The notes under the pieces: model-generated
What the model saw: the letters and a program-made list of their open reading frames with translations, nothing else
What the model was told of the DNA's origin: nothing
The model's database searches: none
In this document: in pieces, positions 2 to 43,651 of the stretch
Layout: the number at the start of each line of letters is the position of its first letter
Numbering within the stretch: the first letter of the stretch is position 1
NCBI RefSeq assembly: GCF_003018255.1
Contig: NZ_CP027440.1
Direction: 5' to 3' (one strand)
Origin: Escherichia coli
Lineage (GTDB): Bacteria > Pseudomonadota > Gammaproteobacteria > Enterobacterales > Enterobacteriaceae
Length of the DNA stretch: 64,000 nt
Position numbers and translations under genes: made by a program

Positions 2-757
2 ATTATTGAGGATTTAATCGCCCGTAAGGTTAATGCAATTACAATTGTGCCAAACGATGCCAACGTGCTGGAACCGGTATTCAAAAAAGCGCGAGATGCC
101 GGAATTGTGGTTCTGACCAACGAATCCCCCGGTCAGCCAAGTGCTAACTGGGATATCGAAATCATTGATAACGAAAAATTTGCCGCTGAATATGTTGAAC
201 ATATGGCGAAACGCATGGGTGGCAAGGGCGGCTATGTGATTTACGTGGGTAGTTTGACCGTGCCGCAGCATAACTTATGGGCTGACTTGCTGGTGAAATA
301 CCAGAAAGAGCATTACCCGGATATGCATGAAGTTACCCGCCGCATGCCGGTTGCCGAGAGTGTGGATGACTCACGTCGTACCACACTGGACCTGATGAAA
401 ACCTATCCTGACTTGAAAGCGGTTGTCTCCTTTGGTTCAAACGGTCCGATTGGCGCGGGACGTGCAGTGAAAGAGAAACGGGCGAAAAATAAAGTCGCAG
501 TCTATGGCATGATGATCCCTTCACAGGCGGCATCACTGATTAAAAGTGGTGATATCACCGAAGGGATTACTTACGATCCGGCCTCTGCAGGTTACGCACT
601 CGCGGCCGTCGCCAGCACGTTGCTGAAGGGTGAAGAGATCAAACCTGGATTAGAAATGCAGAATCTCGGTAAGGCCGACGTAGATATGGATAAGCGAATT
701 ATCCGTTTCCATAAGGTATTACTGGTCAACAAAGACAATATCGACTCACTTTATTAA
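2..757 (+). CDS. periplasmic sugar-binding protein of an ABC transporter (5' partial; type I periplasmic-binding fold, RbsB/LsrB-like)
   Basis: Reading frame is open from the window edge and in frame with track ORF 47..757; followed directly by a two-domain ABC ATPase and two permeases. Confidence 0.8.
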   Translation: MIEDLIARKVNAITIVPNDANVLEPVFKKARDAGIVVLTNESPGQPSANWDIEIIDNEKFAAEYVEHMAKRMGGKGGYVIYVGSLTVPQHNLWADLLVKYQKEHYPDMHEVTRRMPVAESVDDSRRTTLDLMKTYPDLKAVVSFGSNGPIGAGRAVKEKRAKNKVAVYGMMIPSQAASLIKSGDITEGITYDPASAGYALAAVASTLLKGEEIKPGLEMQNLGKADVDMDKRIIRFHKVLLVNKDNIDSLY

Positions 758-767
758 TCCATTTCTT

Positions 768-783
768 CGGGGCGAAAGCCCCG
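768..783 (+). promoter_or_regulatory. intercistronic stem-loop (cggggcgaaagccccg) between binding-protein gene and ATPase gene
   Basis: Perfect 5-bp GC stem with a 6-nt loop seen in sequence; position typical of hairpins that stabilise the upstream binding-protein transcript. Confidence 0.4.
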
Positions 784-805
784 ATTCTTATTGCCAGGGG
801 ATGCT

Positions 806-2290
806 ATGGAAACCTTCCTTTCCCTTCGTCATATCAACAAAACGTTTCATGCCACGCGAGCGCTGCGCGATGTTTCTCTCGACTTTATGTCGGGTGAGGT
901 GCACTGCCTTGCCGGGCAAAACGGCTGTGGTAAATCGACGTTGATTAAAATTATGTCCGGTGTTTATCGCCCGGATGAGGGGGCGGAAATTACGCTTGGT
1001 GGGAAAAACTGGTCAAAGCTGACACCCGCCGCTTCGGTGGCGCAGGGGATTCAGGTGATTTATCAGGACCTCTCTTTATTTCCTAACCTGAGTGTCTGGG
1101 AGAATATCGCCGTGAATCACTATCACCACGGTCTGTTTGTTAACCGCCGTCGTCTGCGTGAGGTGGCGCAGGCGGCAATGACCAGTATTAACGTCACATT
1201 GCCACTGGATACGCTCGTTTCTGAGCTTTCAATTGCCCGCTGTCAGCTGGTGGCAATTTGCCGTGCACTGGCGCAGGACGCACGGTTGATCGTGATGGAT
1301 GAACCAACCGCTTCGCTGACCCATCAGGAAGTGCAAGGGTTATTACAGGTGGTGCATCAATTGCGGGAACGCGGGATCTGCGTGGTCTTCGTCAGTCATC
1401 GTCTGGAAGAAGTGATGGAAGTTTCCGACCGTATTTCAGTGCTGAAAGATGGTGAGCTGGTCGGGACCTTTCCGGCCGCAGAGATGACCACAAAACAACT
1501 CAGTTTTCTGATGACCGGCCAGGAGTTCGAATATCAGGTACGAGAGTTGTGGCAGGGAAAATCCAGCACCCCGGTGCTGGAGGTGCGTAATTTAAGTCGT
1601 CATGGGGAATATCAAAATATTAACTTGCGGGTGGAAGCGGGCGAAGTGGTGTCGATTGTTGGCCTGCTTGGTGCGGGGCGCACGGAATTATGTCTGAGTC
1701 TGTTTGGTATGACCCGACCGGATGCTGGTGAGATCCTCATCAACGGTCAGCCGGTTACACTGCATAGTAACCAGGACGCCATCCGCCACGGTATTGGTTA
1801 TGTTTCGGAAGATCGCATGTCGCGCGGTTTGGTGATGGCGCAATCTATTGAAGACAACATCATTAGCACTGTTTTTCACAAGGTAAAAGATCGCTTCGGC
1901 TTTCTGAGTGAAGCTAAAGTGCGTGACCTGGTGGACAGGCTAATCAAGGCATTGACCATCAAAGTCTCTGACCCACATCTCCCGGTGAATACGCTTTCCG
2001 GGGGTAACGCGCAGCGAGTATCGATCGCCAAATGGCTGGCGATTGGGCCACGACTGTTGATTCTCGATAGCCCGACTGTCGGTGTTGATATCGCCAACAA
2101 AGCAGGAATATACGGCATTATCAGCGATCTGGCGGCTCATGGCATTGCGGTATTGATGATCTGCGATGAAATTGAAGAAGCGTGGTATCAAAGCCACCGG
2201 ATTTTGGTAATGCAAAAAGGTCAGATCACCCATAGCTTCCTGCCTGACAGCAGTTCTCAGGCCAGGATTGCGGAGGTGGTAAATGGCTGA
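806..2290 (+). CDS. sugar ABC transporter ATP-binding protein with duplicated ABC domains (RbsA/XylG-like)
   Basis: Two Walker A motifs (GQNGCGKST and GLLGAGRTE) and an LSGGNAQR signature; track ORF begins at TTG 791, in-frame ATG at 806 preceded by GGGGA. Confidence 0.85.
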   Translation: METFLSLRHINKTFHATRALRDVSLDFMSGEVHCLAGQNGCGKSTLIKIMSGVYRPDEGAEITLGGKNWSKLTPAASVAQGIQVIYQDLSLFPNLSVWENIAVNHYHHGLFVNRRRLREVAQAAMTSINVTLPLDTLVSELSIARCQLVAICRALAQDARLIVMDEPTASLTHQEVQGLLQVVHQLRERGICVVFVSHRLEEVMEVSDRISVLKDGELVGTFPAAEMTTKQLSFLMTGQEFEYQVRELWQGKSSTPVLEVRNLSRHGEYQNINLRVEAGEVVSIVGLLGAGRTELCLSLFGMTRPDAGEILINGQPVTLHSNQDAIRHGIGYVSEDRMSRGLVMAQSIEDNIISTVFHKVKDRFGFLSEAKVRDLVDRLIKALTIKVSDPHLPVNTLSGGNAQRVSIAKWLAIGPRLLILDSPTVGVDIANKAGIYGIISDLAAHGIAVLMICDEIEEAWYQSHRILVMQKGQITHSFLPDSSSQARIAEVVNG

Positions 2291-3254
2291 ACTGAAAAAA
2301 CGCCATGAATTCTGGCTGGCATTACTGATTGTGGTGCTGTTTGTTGGCCTTGCCTGGCGCAGCGACGAGTTTCTGACATTCGGTAATTTGTACGATCTCG
2401 CCAATAACTATGCCATGTTGACTATTCTCGCCTGTGGTTTGTTTGTGGTGTTAATTTCCGGTGGGATTGATATTTCGTTTCCGGCAATGACCATCATTGC
2501 GCAATACGGCATGGTGCTGTTGCTGCAAAAAATTGGTGGCAACTTTGCTGTTGCGTTTGCCCTGGCGGGCGGCATCGGCATTTTACTTGGCTTAATTAAC
2601 GCCTTACTGGTTAATCGCCTACGGGTGCCTTCTATCATCATCACTATCTCGACGCTGAATATTTTCTATGGCCTGCTGTTATGGTTGAGTAAAGGTGTGT
2701 GGCTGTACGACTTTCCGCCGTGGTTTGAGCAGGGGGTTATGTTGTTCAAGTACACCGATGCTGATGGCTATGACTATGGCCTTGGTCTACCGCTGATCGC
2801 CATGATTACGGTGGTGCTGCTAACAGCGTTTATCATGAATTTCACCAGTGTAGGGCGCAAAATTTATGCCCTTGGCGGGAACCGTGAATCCGCCAGTCGC
2901 ATCGGCTTTAGTGTGCTGAAACTGCAACTTTTCGTCTATGGCTATATGGGATTGATGTCTGGTGCTGCGGGTGTAGTGCAGTCGTGGACGGTGATGACTG
3001 TCGCCCCCGATTCTCTTCTGGGTTATGAGCTGACAGTACTGGCTGCGGTGGTGCTTGGCGGCACTAGTTTGCTCGGCGGGCGCGGCACGTTAACCGGTAC
3101 TTTGCTCGGCGTGGTGTTGTTGGCAGTGATGCAAAACGGGCTAAATTTATTGGGAGTCTCGTCTTACTGGCAAACATTGATCACCGGCATCATCATCGTT
3201 GCCAGCATTAGCGCCACGGCGTGGAGTCAGCATCAGAACCGGAGTCTGCTATGA
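2283..3254 (+). CDS. sugar ABC transporter permease (RbsC/branched-chain family)
   Basis: Hydrophobic multi-TM protein; ATG 2283 lies 5 nt upstream of the ATPase stop, so the two genes overlap by 8 bp. Confidence 0.85.
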   Translation: MAELKKRHEFWLALLIVVLFVGLAWRSDEFLTFGNLYDLANNYAMLTILACGLFVVLISGGIDISFPAMTIIAQYGMVLLLQKIGGNFAVAFALAGGIGILLGLINALLVNRLRVPSIIITISTLNIFYGLLLWLSKGVWLYDFPPWFEQGVMLFKYTDADGYDYGLGLPLIAMITVVLLTAFIMNFTSVGRKIYALGGNRESASRIGFSVLKLQLFVYGYMGLMSGAAGVVQSWTVMTVAPDSLLGYELTVLAAVVLGGTSLLGGRGTLTGTLLGVVLLAVMQNGLNLLGVSSYWQTLITGIIIVASISATAWSQHQNRSLL

Positions 3255-4207
3255 AAAAATCGTGGCGTAACAACGTTGAGTTTTACTTGATCGGCCTGCT
3301 GGTGCTAACTGTTGCAGCCTTCAGCATTACTATGCCGGAGATTTTCTGGTCGATAAGTAATTTCCAGTCCGTCGCTTCGCAAATGCCCGTGCTGGGCATT
3401 CTGGCGTTGGCTATGGCGGTGACCATGCTTTGCGGTGGCATTAACTTGTCAATTATAGCCACTGCTAACGCCTGTTCACTGGTGATGGCGTGGGTGGCGA
3501 CTCAGTATCCACCGGGTATTGCTACGGTTGTCGCTACGCTGCTGGCGGGCGCTGGCGCGGCGGTGATAATCGGTTTATGTAACGGCGTATTGATTGCTGG
3601 TATTCGAGTGTCGCCAATTCTTGCAACACTCGGGATGATGACGTTGCTCAAAGGGGTAAATATTCTGGTGACAGGCGGTAGCGCCATTGCCAATTATCCC
3701 TCATGGGTGCTGTGGTTGAATCATGCACAGTGGTTCGGTATTCCGCTACCGATGTGGTTGTTTACCGCAGTGGCGCTGGGGCTGTGGATATTGCTGGAGA
3801 AAACGCCGCTCGGTAAATCCATTTATCTGATTGGTTCTAACGAACGAGCAACACTTTACTCCGGTATTAACACTCGTCGGGTGCTGATATGGGTGTATGT
3901 CATTTCCGCCTTGCTTTGTGCGGTAGCGGCATTTTTGATGATGTCGAAACTCAACTCGGCTAAGGCCTCTTATGGCGAATCGTACTTGCTGGTGTCAATC
4001 CTCGCGGCAGTACTCGGCGGGGTTAATCCGGACGGCGGCAGCGGGCGGATAATTGGTATGGTGCTGGCGCTGTTTCTTCTGCAAATTATTGAAAGCGGCT
4101 TCAATATTCTCGGTATAAGCCCCTACCTGACGATGGCCTTATGGGGAACGTTGCTGCTCTGTTTCATTCAGGCTCGCGGCATGTTAGGGCTGGATCGGGT
4201 GGTTTAA
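3251..4207 (+). CDS. sugar ABC transporter permease, second subunit
   Basis: ATGA start/stop overlap with the upstream permease at 3251-3254, GGAG 7 nt upstream; track ORF starts at GTG 3221. Confidence 0.8.
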   Translation: MKKSWRNNVEFYLIGLLVLTVAAFSITMPEIFWSISNFQSVASQMPVLGILALAMAVTMLCGGINLSIIATANACSLVMAWVATQYPPGIATVVATLLAGAGAAVIIGLCNGVLIAGIRVSPILATLGMMTLLKGVNILVTGGSAIANYPSWVLWLNHAQWFGIPLPMWLFTAVALGLWILLEKTPLGKSIYLIGSNERATLYSGINTRRVLIWVYVISALLCAVAAFLMMSKLNSAKASYGESYLLVSILAAVLGGVNPDGGSGRIIGMVLALFLLQIIESGFNILGISPYLTMALWGTLLLCFIQARGMLGLDRVV

Positions 4208-4293: not shown

Positions 4294-5343
4294 ATGAAGA
4301 TCAAAGCTGTTGGTGCATATTCCGCTAAACAACCACTTGAACCGATGGATATCACCCGGCGTGAACCGCGACCGCATGATGTCAAAATCGAAATCGCTTA
4401 CTGTGGCGTCTGCCATTCCGATCTCCACCAGGTCCGTTCGGAGTGGGCGGGGACGGTTTACCCCTGCGTGCCGGGTCATGAAATTGTGGGGCGCGTGGTA
4501 GCTGTTGGTGATCAGGTAGAAAAATATGCGCCGGGCGATCTGGTTGGTGTCGGCTGCATTGTCGACAGTTGTAAACATTGCGAAGAGTGTGAAGACGGGC
4601 TGGAAAACTACTGTGATCACATGACCGGCACCTATAACTCGCCGACGCCGGACGAACCGGGCCATACTCTGGGCGGCTACTCACAACAGATCGTCGTTCA
4701 TGAGCGATATGTTCTGCGTATTCGTCACCCGCAAGAGCACCTGGCGGCGGTGGCTCCTTTGTTGTGTGCAGGGATCACCACATACTCGCCGCTACGTCAC
4801 TGGCAGGCCGGGCCGGGTAAAAAAGTGGGCGTGGTCGGCATCGGCGGTCTGGGACATATGGGGATCAAGCTGGCCCACGCGATGGGGGCGCATGTGGTGG
4901 CATTTACCACTTCTGAGTCAAAACGCGAAGCGGCAAAAGCCCTGGGGGCCGATGAAGTTGTTAACTCACGCAATGCCGATGAGATGGCGGCTCATCTCAA
5001 GAGTTTCGATTTCATTTTGAATACAGTAGCTGCGCCACATAATCTCGACGATTTTACCACCTTGCTGAAGCGTGATGGCACCATGACGCTGGTTGGTGCG
5101 CCTGCGACACCGCATAAATCGCCGGAAGTTTTCAACCTGATCATGAAACGCCGCGCGATAGCCGGCTCTATGATTGGCGGCATTCCAGAAACACAGGAGA
5201 TGCTCGATTTTTGCGCCGAACATGGCATCGTGGCTGATATAGAGATGATTCGGGCCGATCAAATTAATGAAGCCTATGAGCGAATGCTGCGTGGTGATGT
5301 GAAATATCGTTTTGTTATCGATAATCGCACACTAACAGACTGA
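4294..5343 (+). CDS. yahK: NADPH-dependent aldehyde reductase, zinc-type alcohol dehydrogenase family
   Basis: 349 aa; GHEIVGRV zinc-ADH motif and GxGxxG (GIGGLGHMG); AGGAGT RBS upstream; matches my recollection of E. coli YahK. Confidence 0.9.
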   Translation: MKIKAVGAYSAKQPLEPMDITRREPRPHDVKIEIAYCGVCHSDLHQVRSEWAGTVYPCVPGHEIVGRVVAVGDQVEKYAPGDLVGVGCIVDSCKHCEECEDGLENYCDHMTGTYNSPTPDEPGHTLGGYSQQIVVHERYVLRIRHPQEHLAAVAPLLCAGITTYSPLRHWQAGPGKKVGVVGIGGLGHMGIKLAHAMGAHVVAFTTSESKREAAKALGADEVVNSRNADEMAAHLKSFDFILNTVAAPHNLDDFTTLLKRDGTMTLVGAPATPHKSPEVFNLIMKRRAIAGSMIGGIPETQEMLDFCAEHGIVADIEMIRADQINEAYERMLRGDVKYRFVIDNRTLTD

Positions 5344-5778
5344 AAAAATTAATAAACATCCTGTGGTTTAACATATTAACTTCGCTCCACTTAACTTTTT
5401 AGTTAAGGAGAGCGAAATAATATCAAAGTAGTGGTAAACCTATAGCGTAAATTCAGATTGTTAAATTAACTCCACTACTTTACACGTTAGTTATGAGCGA
5501 TTTCTGATAGTGTCTGGTTTAATCAGAGCTTTATTATCTGCGACGTTTATTTTTATTTAATAGAGCCACCTGCAAGTTGTTATTCCACCAGAGAGTGAAT
5601 CGCAAAGCAGGTAATCATTTCATCTGTATATCTGTATGCCAACTGGCATTCCATCTCTTTTTTCGCCGATATTTTGTTGTGATCGGCGACACTTCGCTTA
5701 AAAAAGCATCAGCAGTGGTTTCGCAGCTATGCGGTGTATAAAAAATGATCTCATGCAGATGTTTTGTGAATGTGTGGG

Positions 5779-5806
5779 TTGACATTCATATGAAAAAAAT
5801 CATAAT
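5779..5806 (+). promoter_or_regulatory. candidate sigma70 promoter (TTGACA, 16-bp spacer, CATAAT) pointing toward yahM
   Basis: Near-consensus -35 and -10 hexamers seen in sequence inside a 620-bp AT-rich non-coding spacer. Confidence 0.3.
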
Positions 5807-5964
5807 TCCATCATGTTTGTGTGGGGTCTTTTCTGTATCTTACGCATCGCACTCAAGCCTGACAGAAAATATGCTGTAAGGCTCATATCAAAAACCGCCA
5901 TTAGCTCATCAGGAAGAGCAGACGACAACCAGGATTGTTGTATGGTACGGGGTTCGAGGCCTCG

Positions 5965-6210
5965 ATGGCGGTCCAGCTTTTCAAAACTCTTCTGAATCAG
6001 ATCCCCTTATTATCATTCCTGCAAAGTGGAACATTGCCATTGTTTGGCTATTCAGGACGGGTCAGACCAATGAAAAAAGCCCACACAGGGGAGAGTGGGC
6101 TGAAATGGGAAGCTAAAGACTCAAGTAAACTTATCGGAAATAAGGACCACGCATTACGGGGGCTATCATCGCCGATGGTCGGGATTCGGCAAATCAGGTT
6201 GATTACGTAG
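5965..6210 (+). CDS. yahM: small protein YahM
   Basis: 81-aa ORF from ATG 5965 (GAGG 7 nt upstream) inside track ORF 5935..6210 (TTG start); the 16-bp gap to the convergent yahN matches the K-12 layout as I recall it. Confidence 0.55.
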   Translation: MAVQLFKTLLNQIPLLSFLQSGTLPLFGYSGRVRPMKKAHTGESGLKWEAKDSSKLIGNKDHALRGLSSPMVGIRQIRLIT

Positions 6211-6226
6211 AGAGTAAATTATCTGC

Positions 6227-6898
6227 TCACCGCTGCGTCACCCCTTCGTAAATCAGGCGTAGCGCGAATACACCAATAATTGCACCAATAACCCGACTGG
6301 CAACGCGTTGCATACGCCCATAAGCACGACGCACTGCGGGCAAAGAAAACGCCTGACTAAGAAAAACGCGCCAGATAACTGATGCGAGCACAATCCCCGC
6401 CCAGGCCATTAAACGTGCCCATGTTGGTGTTTCGGCATTTAATGTTACTGAGAAAATACTAATAAAAAATAAAACGGTTTGCGGGTTAGAGAGATCGGTA
6501 ATTAATCCGCGACGAAAAAAGACATACCAGGGGGCGTTAATCGGTTGTTGTAGTGTGCTCATTTGCGGTGTTGACTGGCGGCGCATGCTGCACCACGCAA
6601 ACCATAAGAGATAAGCGCCGCCGACGATTCTGATAAGCGAAAAAATCTCCTCACACTGCGTAATTAGCGTTGCAAGACCAAACAAACCCAACCCGGAATA
6701 AAATGCATCGCCCAGCGCCACGCCCAGTCCGGTCAGCACTCCTGCGCGTCGACCGGAAGCCAGGCTGGTTTGTACTACCACAAAGAGATTGGCTCCCGGA
6801 TTAAAAAAAGTAATCACGAACAGTCCTACGGTCAGGTAAACGGCGTGCAAAGGATCCATAGTGATTTCATCCATAAATAAGTGAACTAACTGCATCAT
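6227..6898 (-). CDS. yahN: LysE/RhtB-family amino-acid exporter
   Basis: 223-aa hydrophobic protein matching E. coli YahN. Confidence 0.9.
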   Translation of the reverse strand: MMQLVHLFMDEITMDPLHAVYLTVGLFVITFFNPGANLFVVVQTSLASGRRAGVLTGLGVALGDAFYSGLGLFGLATLITQCEEIFSLIRIVGGAYLLWFAWCSMRRQSTPQMSTLQQPINAPWYVFFRRGLITDLSNPQTVLFFISIFSVTLNAETPTWARLMAWAGIVLASVIWRVFLSQAFSLPAVRRAYGRMQRVASRVIGAIIGVFALRLIYEGVTQR

Positions 6899-43060: not shown

Positions 43061-43651
43061 TTTATTTATTATACTACAAGCACAACGACGCCCGCAGAGA
43101 CGTAACCTCTGACGCAGACAGATGCTAATTTTTAAGTGTTAAAAATAGCTGATAGCTGAAAAACAAGGGGCTGCCAGGTACGGGGATAAGACTGTATAAT
43201 CTTTATGTAGTTCATATGTTAAGTGTTTGTGTGTTTGGTTTGTATGGTTATTTTGTTTTATATATTGTATTTAAATGTGATTTAGTTTGTCAATTAATTG
43301 CATATTAAAAATATGTTCTATGCACAAATATGGGTTATATACATTATGTGAATGTATTATGTGGTTGATTGAGAATGATACAGTTATATATGCAATGTGA
43401 ATATAATGGTTTCATTATATGTATTGCTGTTAATAAAATAAAAGACATTATAATCTGCTTGTTTATGCATTAATAAAATGAAGTGCAGTAACTTACTGAA
43501 TTGTCAGAGTGGGTGTAATTGCATATTTAATCTTTCCTTTGCCACTTTTTCGCTAAGAATAAAATCATCTGTGCGATAACAACTAATTCTTTTAATGAAT
43601 GTTTTTATTCCTGAATACTGCTCCCATAACAAGACAGGGGAGCAGACAATC

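Follow-up and report, generated by a model that had tools for sequence, protein, structure and literature searches.

The yahK–yahN interval

The locus studied here lies between yahK and yahN in the window (the whole 64-kb stretch of Escherichia coli DNA that was analyzed), and the list of open reading frames (ORFs) in the window places yahO and prpR past yahN. The gene names yahK and so forth are likewise annotated in JNEC-KY177, a strain that is 100% identical. The initial annotation described 620 bp of AT-rich, non-coding DNA between yahK and yahM, from which yahL appeared to be missing and in which a near-consensus promoter was present. Counted from the end of yahK (5343) to the annotated ATG of yahM (5965), the spacer comprises 621 bp (5344–5964). 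It is indeed AT-rich (38.2% GC), but the description as non-coding does not hold, since the xtpA ORF begins within it, at 5813, and 5894–5975 form a tRNA-like element. The features considered below are as follows:

4294–5343, + strand: yahK, NADPH-dependent aldehyde reductase, left anchor; 349-aa ORF, 98.9% identical to K-12 YahK
5344–5565, + strand: left flank, formerly yahK–yahL intergenic DNA; its indels and SNPs form a haplotype linked to the yahL-less allele
5381–5416, + strand: long imperfect hairpin, 38 nt past the yahK stop; possible 3′ structure of yahK, without a U-tract
5565–5566, no strand: deletion junction; the absent DNA corresponds to NC_000913.3 344170–345004
5566–5778, + strand: right flank, K-12/O157-like; rapidly evolving DNA without coding function, ahead of the xtpA promoter
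5779–5806, + strand: sigma-70-type promoter, TTGACA-N16-CATAAT, 11 of 12 consensus positions
5813–5995, + strand: xtpA ortholog, 60 aa; 59/60 aa (98.3%) identical to K-12 XtpA (b4845), with the same neighbors
5894–5975, + strand: tRNA-like cloverleaf (8-bp acceptor stem, 3′ CCA) within xtpA; overlaps the start of yahM
5965–6210, + strand: yahM ORF, 81 aa, intact here and overlapping xtpA; coding status doubtful
6073–6100, − strand: terminator-like hairpin (GCCCAC...GTGGGC, then TTTTTT, a T6 run) for yahN, inside the yahM ORF
6227–6898, − strand: yahN, LysE-family exporter, right anchor; 223-aa ORF, 99% identical to K-12 YahN

The hairpin at 5381–5416 is based on inverted repeats I11 and I12 of the K-12 copy and is the source of spurious low-score Rfam matches; an Rfam scan of 5300–6300 gave chance-level matches only, all stemming from hairpins. 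A 54-aa TTG-initiated ORF just past the junction (5577–5741, + strand) was considered as a candidate gene and rejected, as it is probably none. This ORF is open in eight of eight E. coli, its codon changes amount to 24 synonymous versus 231 non-synonymous, and in L005, a divergent Escherichia, it is without a start codon and broken by a stop. When all reading frames of 5566–5778 were assessed, none showed an excess of synonymous changes, and no other frame was coding-like.

Upstream of yahK (approximately 630–4207), the window carries an ABC-transporter cluster whose substrate-binding protein is annotated as autoinducer-2-type. The same cluster precedes yahK in O157, O170:H18, and L037, an Escherichia outgroup nearer to E. 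coli than L005. K-12, SE15, CFT073, LWY24, and ST648 have yahI/yahJ and a 75-bp annotated pseudogene fragment in its place, which makes this a second presence/absence polymorphism, unlinked to that of yahL.

Promoter, xtpA, and the tRNA-like element

The promoter proposed initially, TTGACA-N16-CATAAT reading toward yahM, was confirmed on the + strand. Based on 3000 simulated spacers with preserved first-order base composition, the number of matches to at least 11 of the 12 consensus positions expected by chance is 0.028 per spacer, and the whole 64-kb window contains only two. The second of these, TTGACA-N18-TACAAT, is found at approximately 43264–43293 on the − strand. Both hexamers of the promoter upstream of xtpA are invariant in eight E. 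coli (including K-12, O157, SE15, KE48, O170:H18, LWY24, and ST648), L037, L005, and E1V33; the promoter of E. albertii is weaker (TTGACA-N15-CATATT). Homology with E1V33 and E. albertii starts at approximately 5757, just upstream of the −35 element, and the sequences are unalignable further upstream.

The initial annotation also suggested that the indel comes with a strong promoter for a tiny gene. One part of this stands, in that the promoter is real and conserved. It is, however, identical in K-12 and located 213 bp from the deletion junction, and it was neither made nor moved by the indel; going by these comparisons, the promoter is independent of the yahL deletion. Nor is it dedicated to yahM, because it abuts the ATG of xtpA, with the yahM ORF beginning 152 nt further on.

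The ATG of xtpA (5813) is positioned 6 nt past the end of the −10 element (5806), a spacing typical for a −10 element and its transcription start site. Because initiation at this distance falls on the ATG itself, the xtpA mRNA is expected to be leaderless, with its start at or next to the A of the ATG. In K-12, xtpA has been described as yielding a leaderless mRNA with a tRNA-like sequence and a small peptide (Muto et al. 2022, J Biochem 171:459, as cited in RegulonDB v12, PMC10767902). Going by the title of that article (cited in PMC10767902), the XtpA peptide regulates GcvB expression. For the window strain, we infer the transcription start, leaderless translation, and any function from this K-12 literature. 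The K-12 locus and the window are alike in the position of xtpA between yahK/yahL and yahN, in the promoter, in the spacing to the ATG, and in an 85-nt tRNA-like block. They differ at residue 55 of XtpA (N in K-12, S in the window) and in the upstream context, which is 835 bp shorter in the window, with yahL gone.

A massively parallel reporter study in K-12 identified an active, IHF-repressed promoter for yahM (bioRxiv 10.1101/2025.05.13.653802). Searching 5566–5900 for the IHF consensus WATCARNNNNTTR with at most one mismatch yielded no site, so that the IHF repression reported for K-12 cannot be placed on the sequence.

The xtpA frame is open in all E. coli sequences (57–60 aa), in L037, and in E1V33. 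Codon 4 (5822–5824) reads TGG in E. coli and L037 and AAG in E1V33, whereas L005 and E. albertii have a TAG stop there. Parsimony, with one genome per lineage, suggests that TAG is the ancestral state and that the frame was opened twice.

The tRNA-like element was called by ARAGORN as tRNA-Ser(GGA) at 5895–5975. The minimum-free-energy fold of 5888–5978 is a cloverleaf (z = −2.7; none of 200 shuffled sequences folds as well), which consists of the acceptor stem ACCGCCAU/AUGGCGGU and the D, anticodon, and T arms, followed by CCA. This fold holds both in isolation and inside a 298-nt transcript. With the Rfam tRNA covariance model, there was no tRNA-clan match even at E ≤ 10. The anticodon loop in the ARAGORN placement, C-A-GGA-U-U, has A at position 33 and U at position 37, which departs from the canonical combination of U33 and a purine at 37.

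The 85-nt block at 5891–5975 does not differ between E. coli, L005, E1V33, and E. albertii, and across 5167 E. coli genomes its identity is 97.8% or higher, whereas divergence surrounds it, in the initial 80 nt of the xtpA ORF as well as in the sequence downstream. Such identity amid diverging flanks suggests that the block is constrained at the RNA level or by overlapping codes. In DETEC-S792 (NZ_CP116067.1, approximately 4676329–4676399), which matches the window perfectly at the junction, the block aligns only to query position 71 and has a second match elsewhere, possibly reflecting an insertion in the T-arm of the tRNA-like block.

Relatives of the block, with 76–85% identity, occur in 247 lambdoid/Stx phage records, where they sit between tRNA(CAU) and tRNA-Arg(UCU) genes downstream of Q. 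The phage cluster has the arrangement ileZ-(argN)-argO (phiP27, mEp460, and TL-2011c), and the slot to which the block aligns is one that we take to be argN, after the 933W-type phages. Two phage copies, those of phiP27 (L038, 2501–2582) and mEp460 (L039, 2501–2588), were examined against window 5887–5975. The phiP27 copy agrees with the xtpA block at every base of the acceptor stem, the D arm, and the 3′ GATGGCGGTCCA, and mEp460 is one D-arm base off. The phage copies differ from the xtpA block in the anticodon arm and the variable region, and the copies of phiP27 and mEp460 are not called as tRNAs by ARAGORN. In contrast to the phage cluster, the chromosomal copy stands alone, without flanking tRNAs, lies inside an ORF, and has its own promoter. 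The phage relatives suggest phage ancestry for the tRNA-like element of xtpA. Matches of 60–90% to the block are also found in approximately 160 plasmid records, mostly Salmonella conjugative plasmids.

These observations allow a tentative reading, which we consider possible although the odds are against it, namely that the conserved function of the locus resides in an RNA and in neither of the annotated proteins. A phage-derived pseudo-tRNA would have been captured together with a strong promoter in the Escherichia ancestor, and the XtpA frame would be a recent by-product. The source would have been a lambdoid-phage tRNA cluster, and the pseudo-tRNA would have remained base-for-base invariant since capture. 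In E. coli and E1V33, the TAG at codon 4 of xtpA would have been opened independently, becoming TGG in the former and AAG in the latter, and yahL, yahM, and the flanks would be decaying by lineage-specific deletions, the loss of yahL from the window being one of them.

It seems unlikely that the promoter serves mainly to express the YahM protein, as first proposed. The yahM ORF is intact in the window and would lie on the same transcript, downstream of the predicted start, and the K-12 reporter study assigns the promoter to yahM. Apart from the window, however, only K-12, LWY24, ST648, and L037 have an intact yahM. A frameshift disrupts the ORF in SE15, KE48, O170:H18, and CFT073, the O157 copy is truncated, and L005, E1V33, and E. 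albertii have a degenerate copy or none. The ORF is thus broken, degenerate, or absent in many lineages where the tRNA-like block stays invariant and the promoter is conserved. Also counting against a promoter for YahM are the −10 element abutting the xtpA ATG and the terminator hairpin of yahN that yahM houses on the other strand (this hairpin was not called by the scan, as its loop exceeds 8 nt). A family search with YahM, moreover, gave no family match. Viewed across these lineages, the status of yahM as a gene appears doubtful. The better-supported features are xtpA and its tRNA-like RNA. In the automatic annotation of the window, only yahM is labeled here, and annotation of short-allele strains should carry xtpA.

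Deletion of yahL

The gene order in MG1655 is yahK, yahL (816 bp), xtpA (b4845, 183 bp), yahM (overlapping xtpA), and yahN, and the yahK–yahM interval measures 1470 bp, yahL included. Global alignment revealed a sole large difference between the window and K-12, an 835-bp gap at window 5565|5566; the left flank has three further, small indels (2, 1, and 11 bp). The initial suspicion that K-12 carries yahL and that it is missing here is thereby borne out; the K-12 spacer is long and contains yahL, so that the counter-case put forward at the time, an equally short K-12 spacer, fails. Searches of the whole 64-kb window with tblastn and blastn detected no trace of yahL.

The 835-bp block extends from 6 bp before the ATG of yahL to 13 bp after its stop. 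The junction sequence ...TATTTAAGAGAG|CCACCTGC... is common to SE15, KE48, and O170:H18, from which the window differs by one substitution (AATAGAG). Base-by-base inspection of the junction covered four yahL-less strains; CFT073 was assessed by annotation and spacing only, and its annotation shows a yahL-less yahK–yahM spacing of 621 bp as well. The breakpoints show no microhomology, and no pair of direct or inverted repeats at the ends of the block coincides with K-12 locus positions 2171 and 3005. The median number of places per genome that carry the block is one, and of 4122 places in all, 4113 are on chromosomes. Excision of a mobile element or gene cassette was considered and rejected, there being no terminal or flanking repeats and no multiple or mobile copies. 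Because the ends lack repeats and microhomology and the block is single-copy and chromosomal, we infer an illegitimate deletion. No repeat or microhomology accounts for the deletion hugging the ORF boundaries so closely.

To polarize the change, we used outgroups picked by a YahN scan of species-representative genomes, L037 being found via a YahL variant. Both L037 and L005 branch outside all E. coli sampled. L037 has a yahK with 96.1–96.6% nucleotide identity to E. coli and the gene order of K-12; its YahL protein is 87% identical and its yahL gene 90%. In L005, nucleotide identity to every E. coli tested is approximately 88.7% for yahK and approximately 86.4% for yahN, yahK-yahL-xtpA-yahM-yahN is collinear with K-12, and the identities are 79% for the YahL protein and 83% for the yahL gene. 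Because yahL is collinear in two outgroups, with a divergence that grows with lineage distance, the short allele is, on this comparative evidence, a derived and old deletion; yahL is ancestral and was not inserted in K-12.

The left flank (5344–5565) tells of the history of the allele. It has three to five differences to SE15, KE48, and O170:H18, compared with 10 to 12 to four yahL-carrying strains, and its 2-bp and 11-bp deletions and several SNPs are common to SE15, KE48, and O170:H18. The outgroup is without these two deletions. Among the fixed sites of this flank, the short-allele haplotype is outgroup-like at three (5433, 5435, and 5445) and the yahL-carrying haplotype at the others. As each haplotype keeps the outgroup state at different fixed sites, the two split deeply.

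An ancestral short spacer, with yahL inserted in the lineage leading toward K-12-like strains, is very improbable. Such an insertion would suit the character of yahL, an AT-rich (39% GC), fast-evolving orphan almost devoid of homologs, as acquired genes often are, and it would suit the three outgroup-like sites in the yahL-less left flank. It is contradicted by the presence of yahL at the same position in L037 and L005, with divergence rising with species distance, and by the derived 2-bp and 11-bp deletions of the yahL-less flank. Furthermore, the other yahL-less lineage, E1V33 (L004; 762–1294), has a different, larger deletion and is without yahL, most of the spacer, and yahM.

Different deletions in other Escherichia lineages mark the yahK–yahN interval as a decay hotspot. 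MOD1-EC7003 (L027; 6670–8181) has lost the promoter and xtpA and kept a 3′ fragment of yahL next to yahN, and E. albertii (L006) has kept the promoter–xtpA module, with neither yahK nor yahL close by. In Citrobacter, Salmonella, and Edwardsiella, yahN is present, in most cases together with yahO, and its vicinity contains no yahK, yahL, xtpA, or yahM.

Coming back to the old deletion carried by the window, the right flank (5566–5778) has six differences to K-12 and O157 and 14 to 17 to SE15, KE48, and O170:H18, and the yahN of the window is also K-12/O157-like. Judged by this pattern of differences, the window is a recombinant mosaic with only a short tract of the deletion haplotype. It shares the deletion junction and the left-flank haplotype, 2-bp and 11-bp indels included, with SE15, and the 621-bp yahL-less spacer with CFT073. 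Unlike SE15 and CFT073, it has a K-12/O157-like right flank, yahM, and yahN, an intact rather than frameshifted yahM, and the ABC-transporter cluster instead of yahJ upstream of yahK. A 1021-bp query matched only 13 records at 99% identity or more, which is due to the mosaic flanks of the window strain and not to the deletion.

Of 5426 complete E. coli genomes, 4076 carry the 835-bp yahL block, and in 1071 (19.7%) the junction is contiguous. These numbers for the junction were obtained with a 200-bp probe centered on it, which in the other genomes is split exactly at the junction. SE15 and a strain named ST-131 are among those with the short allele; SE15 and CFT073 are phylogroup B2 reference strains. 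The indel does distinguish strains, as the initial annotation expected, with yahL being present in K-12, yet it is not strain-specific, given that some 20% of genomes have the same junction. An assembly artefact or a private, recent deletion of the isolate, for which one might cite the 13 records retrieved with the 1021-bp query, can be dismissed with near certainty in view of the contiguous junction in 1071 independent complete genomes, SE15 among them, the same spacing in CFT073, and the mosaic flanks that account for the scarcity of matches.

As a whole, the locus is, with high confidence, best explained by an old, single-origin deletion of yahL combined with an independent, conserved xtpA promoter. 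On this account, a single 835-bp deletion removed the Escherichia-restricted orphan yahL almost exactly, and the short allele has moved between backgrounds by short-tract recombination, now reaching approximately 20% of complete E. coli genomes. The conserved sigma-70 promoter would drive a leaderless xtpA mRNA from approximately 5813, whose 3′ half folds into the invariant tRNA-like cloverleaf and also holds the overlapping yahM ORF.

YahL and the significance of its loss

In itself, the deletion is of small importance, being a common polymorphism in the presence or absence of an uncharacterized orphan gene. The unit driven by the promoter has already been described in K-12, and the finding is real but ordinary. 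One practical consequence concerns water-quality testing by qPCR, for which a published proposal treats yahL as a signature gene that is conserved and “exclusive to E. coli/Shigella” (PMC11057252). The published yahL primers and probe lie inside the deleted block (K-12 locus L001, 2765–2876) and are absent from the window. Because of this location, yahL qPCR would miss strains without the yahL block, which make up approximately one-quarter of complete genomes and include CFT073 and SE15. Along with this marker conflict, the RNA-level conservation, the phage ancestry, and the unstable ORFs are side points that are perhaps worth a separate look.

Comparison of YahL with Pfam, NCBIfam, PADLOC, and PHROGs returned nothing above threshold. 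An AlphaFold2 model, built from a three-sequence alignment, had a mean pLDDT of 46 and was too poor for use. The 271-codon frame of yahL is intact in all three lineages, and its codon differences are approximately 1:1 synonymous to non-synonymous (38:36 and 57:57), compared with 36:5 and 101:12 for yahK. A word-indexed search found YahL homologs only among Escherichia proteins and fragments. An exhaustive search added one remote relative, P0027, which aligns over the full length with 26% identity. P0027 (L036, 5001–5828; GCA_009799345.1) has an invasin/intimin-like gene and a gene of the DUF2686 family in its vicinity; YjfZ, which has likewise been proposed as an E. coli signature protein, belongs to DUF2686.
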